64,000 nucleotides of DNA from Terrimonas ferruginea. GTDB taxonomy: Bacteria; Bacteroidota; Bacteroidia; Chitinophagales; Chitinophagaceae. How positions within the stretch are numbered: position 1 is the first letter of the stretch; every line of letters begins with the position of its first letter. The stretch spans positions 10,335 to 74,334 of the forward strand of contig JBIQMS010000019.1 in the NCBI GenBank assembly GCA_044463125.1, given 5' to 3'. A program made the position numbers and the translations under genes. Shown piece after piece: positions 39,891 through 46,544 of the stretch. The notes under the pieces were generated by a model. It was not told where the DNA came from, did no database searches, and worked only from the letters and a program-made list of their open reading frames with translations.

Positions 39891-42800
39891 ATGTTCCTAT
39901 TTGGAAGCCGCAGGATTGTGGCGGTATTTTTTCTGTTTATTTTTTCGGTACAGTTGTTTTGGCCGGCTGTCACTTATGCGTTGACAACAGGACCTTCACA
40001 GCCTGAAATGCAGAAGTTTGAAGCGGCAGGCACGGGCGACCTGGTGGATATGTTCACCGGCGACCTGAAGTATAACCTTCCACTACTGGATGTGGGCGGC
40101 TATCCGGTTAACCTTTCTTATCAGTCGGGAACCGGAATGGAAGAGGAAGCCAGTTGGGTAGGTATGGGATGGACGCTTAACCCCGGCGCACTCACCAGGC
40201 AGATGCGAGGTCTTCCAGACGATTTTGATGGACAGGCCACTCAAAGAGATTTAATTGAAAAGGATTACGATAGAAAAGAGTTCCGGAAAGTGGGAGGAAA
40301 CTTTGTCGCAAAGAACACCTTGCTCGGTATTGAAGTTGGAAATCCCCAACTGAAGTTGAGTGTATATAAGGACAATTACTATGGAATAGGGGCATCCATC
40401 GGTGCTTCATTGAACTTCAATTTGTCCAAAGCCGGTAAATCCGATCTCACTGCGAGCCTTGGCCTCGACTTCAACTCGGATATAAGAGATGGTCTTGATA
40501 TTAATCCCAGTTTCTCCCTATCCCGCGCAATCGACCATCTTGATAGTGAGGGATCTGGTTCGGCCAGCTATTCAGTAGGACCCAATTACAATACAAGGGC
40601 CGGACTAAAAAGTATTGCCATTTCGTACAACAATCAGGTCAGGATCGATAAGGATAGTAAGATCCGGAATATGAGCGGATCGGCCGTAACTTATTTTGGT
40701 CAAACCTATACGCCCAGCATCAAGACTAATACATCCAATACCAGTTTTTCATTTAACGGTGATTTTGGGTCTAAAATCACAGCATGGTATAAAGGCGTTG
40801 GAGGAGGTGGGTTTTATTATGCGGAGAAGGTGAAGGACAAAAACGTAAAAGTGCCTGCGTATGGATACCTGAACTATCTGAAAGGTAGAAAGGATGTGGA
40901 CGCCCTGCTCGATTTTAACCGGGAAAAGGAGGCGCCCTTTATTCCTTCCGCACCATCCATTCCCATCCCCGTAGCCACCCCCGACCTCTACCTGGCTACT
41001 GGCCAGGCAGGTTCTATGCAGTTTCGGCCCCAGTTTGCCGGAAACTATGTTGTTTTCGACAAGCAGTACCAAAACCTGGGTGTTGATGCCAATGGTGGTT
41101 TCACTTTTGGTGCCGGTAATATCTTCCTGGGTGGAGTACGATTGGATGCAAGTGCCACCACAACCAGAACGGGAAAATGGGTTAATGGTAATAACTACCT
41201 CAATAGTGCCGAAGCCGAATTTGAAACGGGACTAACGCGTGAAAGGCCAGTATCCTTTAAGCAGTCAGGCGAATTGCTGATTAATAATCCCGGTTATTGG
41301 TCACAATTGGGTGGTGATCGCGCTGCCAAAACGATTTTGCTACCGGGTATGAATACGGGGCTCGGACTTACCGGTCGTACTGGCAGCTACGCCCTTCCCG
41401 ACGAAGGCCTGAAGAAGACGACACCCGACAAGAAGGTCAACAATTTTCAATACCTCAATAATCTCCAGGCAAAAAACCAGGGATTGAATAAAGCAGAACA
41501 GGCCACTCTTCAGCAAACAGACCTTTACCGGAAAGCGCATCACATGTCGGAAGTAACCATTACAGATGGTAACGGACAGCGCATGGTGTATGGCATCCCT
41601 GTGTACAATACTTACCAGGAGGAAGTAAGTTTTTCCGTGGCGGCACCAACCGGTAATGCGGAAAAGATAGCGCGCCGAACCGGATTAATATCCTATACTG
41701 TTGACCCCGGCAATAACGATAAACCGCTCTACAAATATGGCCGCGACGAATTATATAGCCGCGAGCGGATGCCGGGATATGCAACCGGATTTCTTCTCAC
41801 CGGGGTATTATCTCCGGATTACGTAGATGTGACCGGAGATGGAATCACGGATGATGACCTGGGGGGAGCCGTCAAATTTTCGTATGACCGGCATACAAAG
41901 AATTACAAGTGGAGGGCGCCATTCCAGGCCAACATGGCAAACTACAACGAGGGCCTCTTAAGTGATCCGAAGGATGATAAAGCCAACTATGTATATGGTG
42001 AGAAGGAGCTTTGGTACCTGAAGACGATTGAGAGTAAAACCATGATTGCTGTGTTTCACACGCAGGATCGGCTCGATGCATTGGGCGTAATCAGTCGTCA
42101 CGGTGGACTGGATAATCAAACTACCCAACGAAAACTGGAAAAGATTGTCCTGTATAGCAAAGCCGACTATGTTAAAAATGGTGCGACCAACGCCGTACCC
42201 ATTAAAACGGTGCATTTCGAATATGATTATTCCTTGTATCCCGGTTCGCCGAACAGTACCGCGCCGGGTCAGGGTCGGCTAACGCTGAAAAAAGTCTGGT
42301 TCACTTTTGGAAAGAATAACAGGGGCGCTTCCAATCCTTATGTGTTCAGTTACAAAGCGGACCCGATTAATGTTGGAACAATTGGCAATCTGCCACAACC
42401 CGACCCTACATTTACCGGGGATCCGCTTGATAAGGAATTAAATGAATTATATACCGAAAGGCAGGTTGACCGCTGGGGAACCTACAAGCAAAGCTGGTAT
42501 AACCGCTTATTGGGTTCGGGTAATGGCACCAGCGCCATGAATAATTCGGAATACCCTTATGCCCTTCAAAAAATTTCACCACCGTCCGGGGTAGCTGAAG
42601 CCGATTGGTCGGCGCTGATCGACCGGATGGCGGAAAGGTATCAGCTCTACCAGGTGGAAACTCCTTCAGGTGGAATCATTACCGTGGATTACGAAAGCGA
42701 CGATTATGCTTTCGTGCAGGATCGAAGGGCCATGAATATGTATTTCCTGAAGGGCATTGAAAATGCGGATCAAAGTACCGGGCTTGTCAACGCAAATCGC

Positions 42801-45800: not shown

Positions 45801-46544
45801 GCCGCCAATAGCCGGCGCAATGAAATCGCTTTTGATGGATTTGAAGATTATGATTTCGATCTGATGGGCGAAAATGCACCTCTTTGCCCGCCACTCCGCC
45901 ACCTTGATCTGGGCATTACCAATTCATCCGGTAGCTGGACGGGTCCGGGGGGATACATCACTACCGCCCAATCCCATACCGGAAGGAACAGTTATTACCT
46001 CGATGGCACATTGTCCCTGCAGCTTGATGCCGGCGCTGCTCAACCATCCGCAGGCACTGTTCTTGGTTACGATGGAGTAGGAAGATATGTTTTGAACAAC
46101 AATGAGATGGCGAATGGATTTGCTCCCATTGATGGAAAAAAATATGTGTTCAGTTGCTGGGTGAAAGATGGTAGCCCGGGTACCAATACCCTTAACGCTG
46201 TAAATCTAACCCTAAATGGTCAGTCCCATAGCGGAACCGTAACGGTTGTGGAAGGGTGGAAAAAACTGGAAATGTACTTTGATGCAGGATCCGTATTTAA
46301 CCTTTCGATACAAGCTGCGGGCGCCTATATCGATGACATTCGAATTCATCCATTCGATGGCCAGATGGCCAGCTATGTGTACGACAATAAATCGCTTCGC
46401 CTGATGGCTCAACTGGATGAGAACAATTTTGCCACCTATTATGAATACGACGACGAAGGAACACCGGTCAGAGTGAAGAAGGAGACCGAACGCGGAGTTA
46501 TGACGATCAGTGAAAGCCGTCAATCATTACGTAAACGTTTTTAA
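39891..46544 (+). CDS. Giant secreted protein (2217 aa) with an SpvB/TcB-like N-terminus, a VCBS/FG-GAP-like DG motif and a C-terminal CBM-like plus YD-like segment
   Basis: It has a signal peptide. The N-terminus TGPSQPEMQKFEAAGTGDLVDMFTGDLKYNLPLLDVGGYPVNLSYQSGTGMEEEASWVGMGWTLNPG parallels the SpvB/TcaC N-terminal pattern (..IPL....G..P.LSLSYSSG.GNGPFG.GW.L). It also has VDVTGDGITDDDLGG, and the C-terminus is ...IDDIRIHPFDGQMASYVYDNKSLRLMAQLDENNFATYYEYDDEGTPVRVKKET. Confidence 0.7.
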   Translation: MFLFGSRRIVAVFFLFIFSVQLFWPAVTYALTTGPSQPEMQKFEAAGTGDLVDMFTGDLKYNLPLLDVGGYPVNLSYQSGTGMEEEASWVGMGWTLNPGALTRQMRGLPDDFDGQATQRDLIEKDYDRKEFRKVGGNFVAKNTLLGIEVGNPQLKLSVYKDNYYGIGASIGASLNFNLSKAGKSDLTASLGLDFNSDIRDGLDINPSFSLSRAIDHLDSEGSGSASYSVGPNYNTRAGLKSIAISYNNQVRIDKDSKIRNMSGSAVTYFGQTYTPSIKTNTSNTSFSFNGDFGSKITAWYKGVGGGGFYYAEKVKDKNVKVPAYGYLNYLKGRKDVDALLDFNREKEAPFIPSAPSIPIPVATPDLYLATGQAGSMQFRPQFAGNYVVFDKQYQNLGVDANGGFTFGAGNIFLGGVRLDASATTTRTGKWVNGNNYLNSAEAEFETGLTRERPVSFKQSGELLINNPGYWSQLGGDRAAKTILLPGMNTGLGLTGRTGSYALPDEGLKKTTPDKKVNNFQYLNNLQAKNQGLNKAEQATLQQTDLYRKAHHMSEVTITDGNGQRMVYGIPVYNTYQEEVSFSVAAPTGNAEKIARRTGLISYTVDPGNNDKPLYKYGRDELYSRERMPGYATGFLLTGVLSPDYVDVTGDGITDDDLGGAVKFSYDRHTKNYKWRAPFQANMANYNEGLLSDPKDDKANYVYGEKELWYLKTIESKTMIAVFHTQDRLDALGVISRHGGLDNQTTQRKLEKIVLYSKADYVKNGATNAVPIKTVHFEYDYSLYPGSPNSTAPGQGRLTLKKVWFTFGKNNRGASNPYVFSYKADPINVGTIGNLPQPDPTFTGDPLDKELNELYTERQVDRWGTYKQSWYNRLLGSGNGTSAMNNSEYPYALQKISPPSGVAEADWSALIDRMAERYQLYQVETPSGGIITVDYESDDYAFVQDRRAMNMYFLKGIENADQSTGLVNANRIAIHLPVPVANYQEFKELYLRNADGTYLNKIYYKFYTDMDNYSSQAKAKHWEYVYGYAEILDEGSTASGNTVFLSLKKRNGYNPIAKGAWQMLRTELPQYAYDGYDNSNVGSDLVAAITSIFQAVKNIGAELKSFDKRAANRGYANQVDLSRSMVRLYVPRKTTSASATPVNRKNGGGIRVRKVQISDQWSEMTDAAAGETRSYGQVYDYAIRDKDGNYLMSSGVAAYEPMLGNEENPFREPIPFTEQVHWQRDRYHYIEKPYCESYFPGPSIGYSRVSVIPFGADYDGSGNPVRHTGEIIHEFYTARDFPTLVEELSLDKREYQNSLILKLFTSRSVRKVATSQGFTVVMNDMHGKAKKLSYLNKAGDLVSSTEYFYHVQDQDAARKELKSKVPVLFFTGSISEEILGEDIDFTTDVRESDSQTYGLSTGTYAGAFFLGIIGMGYTTFIPLPISSHTRYASISLVKAIHRTGIVTKVVTTQNGSTLEAENLLWDPLTGQVLLTRNQTEYDKATYQFNFPAHMVAEYKSMGPVSQYLGTLFPNIATNSNGVITSITPLSQYSYIHPGDELIHVSDGNMPRGWIIKGPNASSNNPDFRLVDRNGDFIQASGSWLLVRSGRRNLMSASVGSIVLMEDPRVGLQLQIDVSKRILDAKALTYKQEWPIPVNQEWAENPDQCTNMREDCFRYFMIHALAKTVAGAGTNNIRRAFFSEENDGTTTGNVHLVMNEAGCSEFASADGQSVLPYYWETSLHTTPQSGGGIDYVVSPGDQIKMGDYQLNITSVHPDFLTLANSQLTDEALRNELSGHVGGQTAFIYKYCIVKTGACAYEFRRTDNCSTVGSGLQVFPECGTYPECNYTSLLSFTLDYSGPPTMTCVDPEGRRINPYQKGILGNWRPLQSYVYTTSRNQDAGISSQVAGTDIRNNGYYNQFTNFWNWEQGNLKAQVDPLQNYPASDLKSRWVWSKQAVYYDQMGNETESVDALGRYGSALYGYQQTLATAVAANSRRNEIAFDGFEDYDFDLMGENAPLCPPLRHLDLGITNSSGSWTGPGGYITTAQSHTGRNSYYLDGTLSLQLDAGAAQPSAGTVLGYDGVGRYVLNNNEMANGFAPIDGKKYVFSCWVKDGSPGTNTLNAVNLTLNGQSHSGTVTVVEGWKKLEMYFDAGSVFNLSIQAAGAYIDDIRIHPFDGQMASYVYDNKSLRLMAQLDENNFATYYEYDDEGTPVRVKKETERGVMTISESRQSLRKRF

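Follow-up and report, generated by a model that had tools for sequence, protein, structure and literature searches.

A 2217-residue protein with TcB-like termini in a conserved Rhs toxin cassette of Bacteroidota

Introduction

Rhs/YD toxins are among the commonest of bacterial weapons, and to our knowledge their delivery is understood only for those borne by type VI secretion systems (T6SSs) and for the Tc (ABC) class. This report concerns a protein of 2217 amino acids (aa) from Terrimonas ferruginea, encoded in a 64,000-nucleotide (nt) stretch of contig JBIQMS010000019.1 (GenBank assembly GCA_044463125.1, positions 10,335 to 74,334 of the forward strand). This whole stretch is referred to below as the window. 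The gene precedes that of a 3349-aa Rhs protein, and a first-pass annotation made from the sequence alone had taken its product for the B half of a two-protein cocoon in which the Rhs neighbor supplies the C half. The protein belongs to a very large family without functional annotation, whose genes are linked to an unvarying set of genes for envelope proteins. Neither the family nor its gene cassette was found described in the searchable literature on DUF6443, Fjoh_060x, Rhs proteins of Bacteroidota and Flavobacterium, or teneurin-like proteins. TANFOR toxins and teneurin-like proteins belong to other systems.

The Cassette and its 2217-aa Protein

The gene of interest is the fourth of six with a conserved order: a product of ~800 aa, one of ~365 aa, a lipoprotein of ~165 aa, the 2217-aa family, a product of ~260 aa, and a giant Rhs protein (Table 1). 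From the gene for the 779-aa product to the open reading frame (ORF) past the Rhs gene, the junctions are either gaps of no more than 16 nt or overlaps, the latter of 4 nt (start of the lipoprotein gene and stop codon of the 368-aa gene) and 38 nt (end of the Rhs gene and the immunity candidate behind it). A strong terminator at positions 34375-34401 lies upstream of the unit. All six cassette products in the window bear Sec signal peptides or a lipobox, as read from the sequence.

Table 1. Features of the cassette and of the 2217-aa protein, in window positions.
Feature	Position	Strand	Basis or remark
First cassette gene, 779 aa	35946..38285	+	Real start probably ATG at 35997
Second cassette gene, 368 aa, signal peptide	38293..39399	+	Homolog directly upstream of the big gene in 60/83 loci
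Third cassette gene, 159 aa, predicted lipoprotein, lipobox LLMAC/S	39396..39875	+	Sequence read
2217-aa protein	39891..46544	+	ORF and translation
Sec signal peptide, aa 1-30, cleavage after conserved AYA, before LTSGP	39891..39980	+	Sequence read
SpvB/TcB-like N-terminal motif, aa 31-122	39981..40256	+	hhalign against TcB profile
About 16 long strands in an antiparallel sheet, aa 121-426	40251..41168	+	AlphaFold2 (AF2) secondary structure
Acidic loop SPDYVDxTGDGITDDDLG, aa 641-662, FG-GAP/VCBS-like	41811..41876	+	Nearly invariant in family
Family motif GVA[SA]YEPxIGNEENPF, aa 1194-1209, near-invariant	43470..43517	+	Conserved pattern, used for locus scan
Predicted beta-hairpin, two ~30-residue strands, aa 1380-1441	44028..44213	+	AF2 secondary structure
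Hypervariable module, aa 1641-1840	44811..45410	+	Column conservation 0.21-0.29
Jelly-roll domain like a carbohydrate-binding module (CBM), aa ~2010-2155	45918..46355	+	Foldseek
Two or three YD-like beta-hairpins, aa 2158-2208, then basic C terminus	46362..46514	+	Motif and hhalign
Remaining order: aa ~430-1150 mixed alpha/beta; ~1150-1500 further hairpins; 1840-2010 hairpins			AF2
LolA3-family periplasmic protein, 261 aa	46556..47341	+	NF053579
Partner Rhs toxin, 3349 aa, signal peptide	47356..57405	+	Pfam/NCBIfam
Rhs domains: DUF6443 aa 336-427, two Laminin_G_3, RHS repeats, Rhs core aa 2991-3075, tip ~270 aa			TIGR03696 (core)
Candidate cognate immunity protein, 258 aa, tetratricopeptide repeat (TPR)-like	57368..58144	+	Role inferred from position
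Three orphan Rhs-core and C-terminal toxin cassettes (58369-59412, 60190-61272, 62229-63290)	58369..63877	+	TIGR03696

The sequence motifs quoted here are invariant or nearly so among 40-85 homologs of 37-60% identity, which marks them as selected features and not chance strings. In the signal region, A11, P25 and the block A-Y-A-L-T-x-G-P are kept across the family alignment. Beyond the cleavage site, the pattern TGD..Y.LPL....G.P..LSY.SG.G...G.GW.L.P...R...G.P occupies aa 56-109. The acidic loop contains VDVTGDGITDDDLGG at aa 645-659, the sole FG-GAP-like motif in the whole protein, and the loop possibly binds Ca2+. The GVA[SA]YEPxIGNEENPF motif falls in segments with a predicted local distance difference test (pLDDT) score below 50 in both structure models and may be a site of interaction or processing. 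In the hypervariable module the inserts differ between homologs, and Pfam scans of 21 of these gave sporadic matches to CBM96, CBM_4_9 and cEGF; 'PA14' and 'DNRLRE' also occur among the source names of homologs.

The canonical YxYD motif is confined to the tail of the protein, YVYDNKSLRLMAQLDENNFATYYEYDDEGTPVRVKKET at aa 2162-2199, where it occurs twice (aa 2162 and 2184). Nine residues follow the last of the predicted YD-like strands, which ends at aa 2208, and there the chain stops. Neither the Rhs core (TIGR03696) nor a toxin domain past the tail was found in the protein by Pfam and NCBIfam, as the first-pass annotation had stated.

Sequence Relationships

Similarity to TcB proteins was found at the two ends of the chain. 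With a profile built from the ~108 residues that open the mature chain, hhalign placed family aa 61-122 on aa 39-106 of SepB, N terminus on N terminus (Prob 69.6, E=4.2e-5, 58 columns). Two kinds of control profile were used: the reversed TcB profile gave E=0.14, and the best of 20 locally shuffled profiles gave E=0.011. The alignment covers only about 60 residues of a SpvB domain of roughly 300. The SpvB/TcaC pattern that the first-pass annotation had read here is supported at the sensitivity of profile-profile comparison alone, with no Pfam SpvB match. The same N-terminal profile gave a weak hmmsearch match (E=0.12) to aa 387-447 of the mosquito protein SGS1, which are among the first Rhs/YD shell strands of that protein, right after propeller 1 (PMC9935623).

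At the other end, the C-terminal 68 residues aligned with the last YD strands of TcB (hhalign E 0.005) and, weakly and in four alternative registers, with the partner's own RHS region (E 0.004-0.025), in keeping with the YD-like tail noted earlier. Windowed hhalign against TcB and the partner's RHS region matched both termini and no other part of the protein, and BLASTP between the 2217-aa protein and its Rhs neighbor was not significant.

A propeller like that of TcB had also been suggested from the FG-GAP/VCBS-like motif. The motif is real, but it is single, and a propeller is not supported: the region around it gave no hhalign match to the TcB propeller (TcB aa 400-700), and a search of aa 430-1150 for internal repeats of the kind expected from blades peaked at a probability of 22% among 253 pairs.

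Scans with Pfam and NCBIfam covered the whole protein (E<=0.1), five overlapping pieces (E<=10) and 21 homologs. The whole protein matched nothing, and the SpvB, FG-GAP/VCBS and RHS/YD profiles that the first-pass annotation named returned nothing significant even from the pieces and homologs; RHS_repeat gave E=2.9 on one piece. For comparison, a TcB set was gathered with SepB from pADAP. Among the 120 proteins listed in it, PF03534, PF12256 and PF12255 are present without exception, and PF13517 is absent from three.

Predicted Structure

The 2217-aa protein was modeled as two overlapping halves, each from a 35-sequence alignment. The N half (aa 28-1227) reached a mean pLDDT of 72.2 and a predicted template modeling (pTM) score of 0.71, and the C half (aa 1018-2217) reached 73.6 and 0.60.

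In Foldseek searches of the PDB, SGS1 was the best match for both halves. For the N half it was the sole match under 1e-3 (E=1.8e-6, prob 0.96), followed by a weak tail, at target template modeling (TMt) scores of 0.44 or lower, of secretins, pore-forming toxins and small barrels of the outer membrane. For the C half, SGS1 (4.8e-10) was accompanied by TcdB2-TccC3 (about 3e-7, prob 0.87-0.89), YenBC, RhsA, Rhs1, RhsP, Tse5, Tse15, a teneurin-like protein and teneurins. Altogether more than 25 Rhs/YD shell structures matched this half at E 1e-10 to 1e-4, with template modeling (TM) scores of 0.15 or lower. The Photorhabdus and Yersinia cocoons proposed for comparison in the first-pass annotation are among these matches, at the same low TM-scores.

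The C half also matched the pore states of iota Ib and CDTb (prob 0.97-1.0). Its jelly roll, which had been noticed before the tail as a CBM-like segment, resembled CBM22, CBM16 and a porphyran-binding CBM (8xmz, 4xup, 2zex/2zez; prob 1.0, TMt 0.42-0.55). No entry named as a propeller occurs among the 50 Foldseek matches listed for the N half, and a search of BFVD was uninformative, with porin-like entries among its weak matches. Judged from these models, the order of regions reads as parallel to that of TcB and SGS1, with domains inserted in a shell that opens with SpvB strands.

Family Size and Range

Among scored candidates the family comprises more than 2400 clusters at 90% identity, and at least 587 matches were confirmed in species-representative genomes. 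None of the 120 homolog clusters listed has a functional name. The C-terminal module alone has 5437 representatives at 50% identity, of which 1032 have E<=1e-30, and in nearly all of the 150 best representatives it forms the C terminus of its protein.

The family appears confined to Bacteroidota. A locus scan compared 83 related loci. The 80 best loci come from Bacteroidota of soil, water and gut lineages (Chitinophagaceae, Mucilaginibacter, Pedobacter, Flavobacteriales, Saprospiraceae, Bacteroidales and Cytophagales) or from apparently mislabeled metagenome-assembled genomes (MAGs). Four such MAGs (L016, L022, L067, L074) are titled Rhizobium, Citrobacter freundii, Akkermansia or Hydrocarboniphaga; since their cassettes are Bacteroidota-like, errors of binning or labeling are likely.

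In Flavobacteriales and some other Bacteroidia the gene is split at the hypervariable region (L083, L056, L047, L058, L075, L076, L051). The split yields an N module of ~1600-2000 aa and a C module of ~380-1650 aa, for example 1863+1151 aa or 1884+886 aa, and many stand-alone C-module proteins of about 1150 aa occur in the representative library.

The Rhs Partner and its Toxin Locus

The neighbor is indeed an Rhs protein, as the first-pass annotation had it, and the functional link to the 2217-aa protein is supported by synteny. In 73 of the 83 loci the family gene is followed downstream by a homolog of the partner's N-terminal region, the remainder being mostly contigs too short to include it, and on contigs long enough to judge, no family gene was seen without an Rhs partner. 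Besides its region at aa 2330-3075, the partner shows YD-like motifs at aa 377, 489, 545 and 1820. A phmmer search of the 3349-aa protein against the PDB gave no match. Its toxin tip has no Pfam match and contains, at aa 3220-3238 (57013-57069), a strongly hydrophobic helix of transmembrane type, AAVTVIGLVAVGIAAFISI; this tip may be a membrane-active toxin.

Behind the partner and its candidate immunity gene, each orphan cassette precedes a small ORF, probably an immunity gene. The 172-nt core-coding segment 56328-56499 of the Rhs gene has copies of 69-94% identity at 58356, 60177 and 62216, and a 300-nt repeat is found at 59943 and 61982 with 91% identity. These repeats would provide a substrate for the displacement of C termini by recombination. 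Orphan toxin cassettes with immunity ORFs are a hallmark of antibacterial polymorphic toxin loci, and their presence here, with candidate immunity ORFs, indicates an antibacterial role.

Other Cassette Genes and Flanks

In 24 of 25 loci the gene that separates the big-protein gene from the Rhs gene matched LolA3_fam (best E=5.7e-59); in the window the match to NF053579 has E=4.6e-11, under the curated cut-off. Proteins of the LolA fold move hydrophobic cargo through the periplasm, and deletion of LolA3 (Fjoh_0605) in F. johnsoniae leaves gliding and type IX secretion unaffected (PMC11885536). The conserved position of LolA3 in the cassette suggests that its function lies there.

At the head of the cassette, the 779-aa product has a signal peptide and a helical N-terminal part, while its C-terminal part looks like an outer-membrane beta-barrel. 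Signal peptides occur across the ~800-aa family, whose C termini (..HYSF, ..RMNF, ..RYRF, ..KYSIK) resemble the beta-signal of outer-membrane proteins. An ORF of 740-880 aa occupies the matching position in 44 related loci, as judged by size and order, and tblastn detects it in 25. The family has no match in Pfam, NCBIfam or the PDB, including searches of its own profile against the PDB and Pfam. The 368-aa protein likewise found no family in Pfam/NCBIfam scans, and an ORF of 130-200 aa stands at the lipoprotein position in 47 loci.

Flanks were annotated for four loci (the window, L002, L086 and L087), and in these four genomes the cassette is bordered by unrelated housekeeping genes, which in the window include recJ, coaBC, dnaA and ABC-2 transporter genes. 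No TcA, T6SS or type IX secretion system (T9SS) genes were seen in the window or in the flanks of the annotated loci. A scan for sigma-70 promoters stayed at background level; such a scan does not apply to Bacteroidota promoters.

Several further features adjoin the cassette. A DUF4082 protein with a coiled-coil tail (34907-35995) ends where the 779-aa gene begins; a homolog occurs within the fetched flanks of 12 of the 83 related loci, mostly upstream, and it may be an optional seventh member. Further upstream, 30398-34373 holds two tandem paralogs of transglutaminase type with DUF3857 (the first also with DUF3858), which end at the terminator at 34375-34401. The dnaA gene lies at 22340-23773, near an upward turn of the cumulative GC skew (~16000-22000); the window probably spans the chromosomal replication origin, and the Rhs cassette begins about 12 kb from dnaA.

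Interpretation

By any curated test the 2217-aa protein is not a member of the SpvB/TcB family. Its ancestry most likely lies among TcB-type shell proteins: it starts with SpvB/TcB-like N-terminal strands and ends with YD-like hairpins, as TcB does. According to the models, the middle would consist of long-hairpin sheets and inserted domains like those of SGS1 that have diverged past family-level recognition. We put forward, with about an even chance of being right, that the protein serves as a partner subunit of TcB type, itself highly diverged, in an antibacterial Rhs system that is exported by Sec, located in the envelope and specific to Bacteroidota. Favoring this, besides the two termini and the Foldseek matches to SGS1 and other shells, are the near-strict synteny (Rhs in 73/83 loci, LolA3 in 24/25), the housekeeping genes that bound the cassette in four genomes, the tight gene junctions, the export signals on all six products, the orphan toxin cassettes, the free C-terminal module, and the fact that the gene can be split into N and C modules. 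Synteny is also what points to a possible physical complex between the 2217-aa protein and the Rhs toxin.

How such a system would work can be outlined in steps. The six cassette products would first cross the inner membrane through Sec, as their signal peptides imply. The barrel-like ~800-aa protein, the lipoprotein and LolA3 might then position the complex at the outer membrane or put it together there. There the 2217-aa protein would bind the cocoon of the DUF6443-Rhs protein, probably by edge-to-edge strand pairing of its free YD hairpins, and would then extend, cap or anchor the shell. Its hypervariable lectin-like module and CBM, to judge from domain type and variability, could engage the surface of the target cell. 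Finally, the encapsulated C-terminal toxin would be freed against neighboring bacteria while immunity genes shield kin, as the layout of the locus suggests. The complex would thus be BC-like but lack TcA, and would be exported instead of released by lysis.

A number of observations weigh against this proposal. No curated profile (SpvB, FG-GAP, TcdB_mid or RHS) recognizes the protein, and SpvB, FG-GAP/VCBS, TcdB_mid and RHS_repeat matched none of the 21 homologs. Searches of PDB sequences, with phmmer for the protein and with a 40-sequence full-length profile, gave noise only, and full-length hhalign of the family against the 25-sequence TcB profile gave no match. Every large-protein match in Foldseek has a TM-score of 0.15 or lower, so the similarity is local or architectural; models rich in beta-hairpins can yield long, low-quality alignments, and those used here are two halves built from 35-sequence alignments with mean pLDDT 72-74. 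No fusion of the C-terminal module to Rhs, of the B-C kind known for Tc toxins, occurs among the 150 best representatives. The Rhs partner, with its additional YD-like motifs, may already hold a complete shell of its own. Lastly, the strands of aa 131-214 are strongly amphipathic across 40 homologs by per-face hydropathy, which is unusual for the single-layer wall of a cocoon.

There is also a real chance that the whole cassette represents a new route of export and delivery. In its full form this would make the six genes an unrecognized, Bacteroidota-wide outer-membrane pathway for Sec-translocated Rhs toxins, independent of T6SS, T9SS and TcA, with the 2217-aa protein as both anchor and translocator. 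An N-terminal barrel or sheet would sit in the producer's outer membrane, lectin modules would recognize the target, a hydrophobic-tipped hairpin would breach the target membrane, and LolA3 would be a dedicated periplasmic chaperone. All of these parts together make a tentative proposal, clearly less probable than that of a diverged partner subunit.

Somewhat less probable again, though plausible, is the original idea of a two-chain cocoon, in which the 2217-aa protein is the B half and the Rhs protein gives a TcC-like half (aa ~2300-3075 plus the core), the two closing into one shell as TcB and TcC do. The partner's contiguous RHS region and core, at about 765 aa, come near the size of a TcC shell, and the 2217-aa protein is colinear with TcB at both ends; the Foldseek matches to TcdB2-TccC3 and YenBC and the near-strict synteny would also fit. 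A closed shell of this kind is made unlikely by the restriction of canonical YD repeats to the last 60 residues, by the failure of hhalign and the internal-repeat search to detect a propeller gate, and by the partner's N-terminal YD-like segments and DUF6443, with which it could close its own shell. The C-terminal module, moreover, was never found fused to Rhs in the 150 best representatives, and the LolA3 gene sits between the two genes.

An outer-membrane anchor or translocator, taken apart from the wider pathway, is doubtful to much the same degree as the two-chain cocoon. Here the sheet at aa ~121-330 would be a transmembrane beta-barrel, as in inverse autotransporters, and/or the hairpin at aa 1380-1441 would insert into membranes, as binary-toxin B components do. 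The Rhs cocoon would then be displayed on the producer's surface or be given a conduit into the target, in the manner of an A component. Amphipathic strands with alternating loops are the typical pattern of membrane barrels. In the strands of aa 131-214 one face is hydrophobic (Kyte-Doolittle (KD) values of +1.6 to +2.9) and the opposite face polar, and in the N-terminal sheet short and long loops alternate, with indels (aa 151, 188, 259) in alternate loops. At the tip of the hairpin, some 24 residues (aa ~1402-1425) vary in sequence, yet in 39 of 40 homologs they remain hydrophobic, with abundant Gly, Pro and aromatic residues. It is these amphipathic strands, this tip and the near-invariant GVA[SA]YEPxIGNEENPF motif in its low-pLDDT segments, all of them unexpected in a cocoon wall, that keep a membrane role alive. 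Foldseek adds designed transmembrane barrels, Ail, OmpG, OmpT/Pla, secretins and porin-like BFVD entries as matches, and the iota Ib pore and CDTb for the C half (prob 0.97-1.0); LolA-fold proteins, too, ferry hydrophobic cargo across the periplasm (PMC11885536). Set against this, comparison with real barrels gives poor TM-scores (TMt 0.2-0.44), pLDDT at the hairpin tip is below 50 in the C half model, and the cassette already encodes a separate barrel-like protein. The binary-toxin similarity is probably due in part to the CBM domain alone, since the alignments span 140 columns at about 4 A root-mean-square deviation.

An independent surface protein, adhesin or glycan binder, with no tie to the Rhs toxin beyond a common operon, would account for the Sec signal and for the CBM-like and variable lectin-like modules; this was rejected as very improbable in view of the near-obligate order of big protein, LolA3 and Rhs across orders of Bacteroidota, the TcB-like termini and the shell-like fold matches. 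That the protein is a true TcB ortholog from an insecticidal ABC toxin complex, as the N-terminal motif and the adjacent Rhs protein with core and variable tip might suggest, is scarcely credible and was likewise rejected: no TcA-like gene lies in the window or beside the cassette in the four flank-annotated loci, the SpvB, FG-GAP and TcdB_mid matches found together in nearly all 120 listed TcBs are missing, Sec signal peptides are present, and bacterial targets are indicated by the orphan toxin cassettes and their candidate immunity ORFs.

Bacteria with the 2217-aa protein probably handle their Rhs toxins in a way not yet described. Such a mechanism would account for the deployment of giant Rhs toxins by a phylum dominant in the environment and the gut and would show how far the TcB scaffold can diverge. 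If true, it would also give LolA3 its missing role.

Comparison with Known Systems

Among known proteins, the TcB components (TcdB2, YenB and SepB; PDB 4O9X, 4IGL) are one of the closest comparisons. As in TcB, a SpvB-type motif opens the mature chain of the 2217-aa protein and YD-type strands close it, with neither Rhs core nor toxin; its gene lies just upstream of a core-bearing Rhs gene with a hypervariable tip, and the C half matches in Foldseek at about 3e-7. Unlike TcB, the protein lacks matches to SpvB (PF03534), FG-GAP_3 (PF13517), TcdB_toxin_midN (PF12256) and midC (PF12255). It is also about 750 residues longer and has lectin/CBM inserts and no detected propeller. TcB is cytoplasmic, has no signal peptide and is released by lysis (type 10 secretion), whereas the 2217-aa protein has a Sec signal. 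The locus likewise departs from the Tc arrangement: there is no TcA partner, a LolA3 gene separates the B-like and C-like genes, and the setting is of antibacterial type.

The Rhs effectors of T6SSs (RhsA, Rhs1, Tse5, Tse15) and the teneurin-like proteins share with this system the features of antibacterial polymorphic toxins, namely immunity genes and a YD shell with a core protease. Bacterial teneurin-like proteins are also Sec-targeted, with no delivery machinery known (PMC13018210). Both groups differ in being single-chain, self-closed shells that are delivered by VgrG/PAAR or anchored as lipoproteins or through the S-layer. None has a partner of ~2200 aa, and no cassette containing LolA3 was found in the literature searched.

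Iota Ib and CDTb, together with inverse autotransporters, resemble the 2217-aa protein in the long hydrophobic-tipped hairpin, the CBM-like receptor domain and the N-terminal amphipathic strands. They have no sequence relationship to it; what likeness there is remains local and of low confidence, and any oligomerization or membrane insertion of the protein would be hypothetical.

Finally, SGS1 of mosquitoes (PDB 8FJP) is a horizontally acquired, fused TcB-TcC-like Rhs/YD shell with inserted propeller, CBM and lectin domains (PMC9935623). It differs in being eukaryotic and in forming one chain that includes the Rhs core and cargo as well as two propellers, and its TM-scores here are only 0.13-0.15. 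Even so, it is the top structural match of both halves of the 2217-aa protein, it gives a weak profile match on its first shell strands, and it shares with the Bacteroidota protein the presence of carbohydrate-binding inserts.

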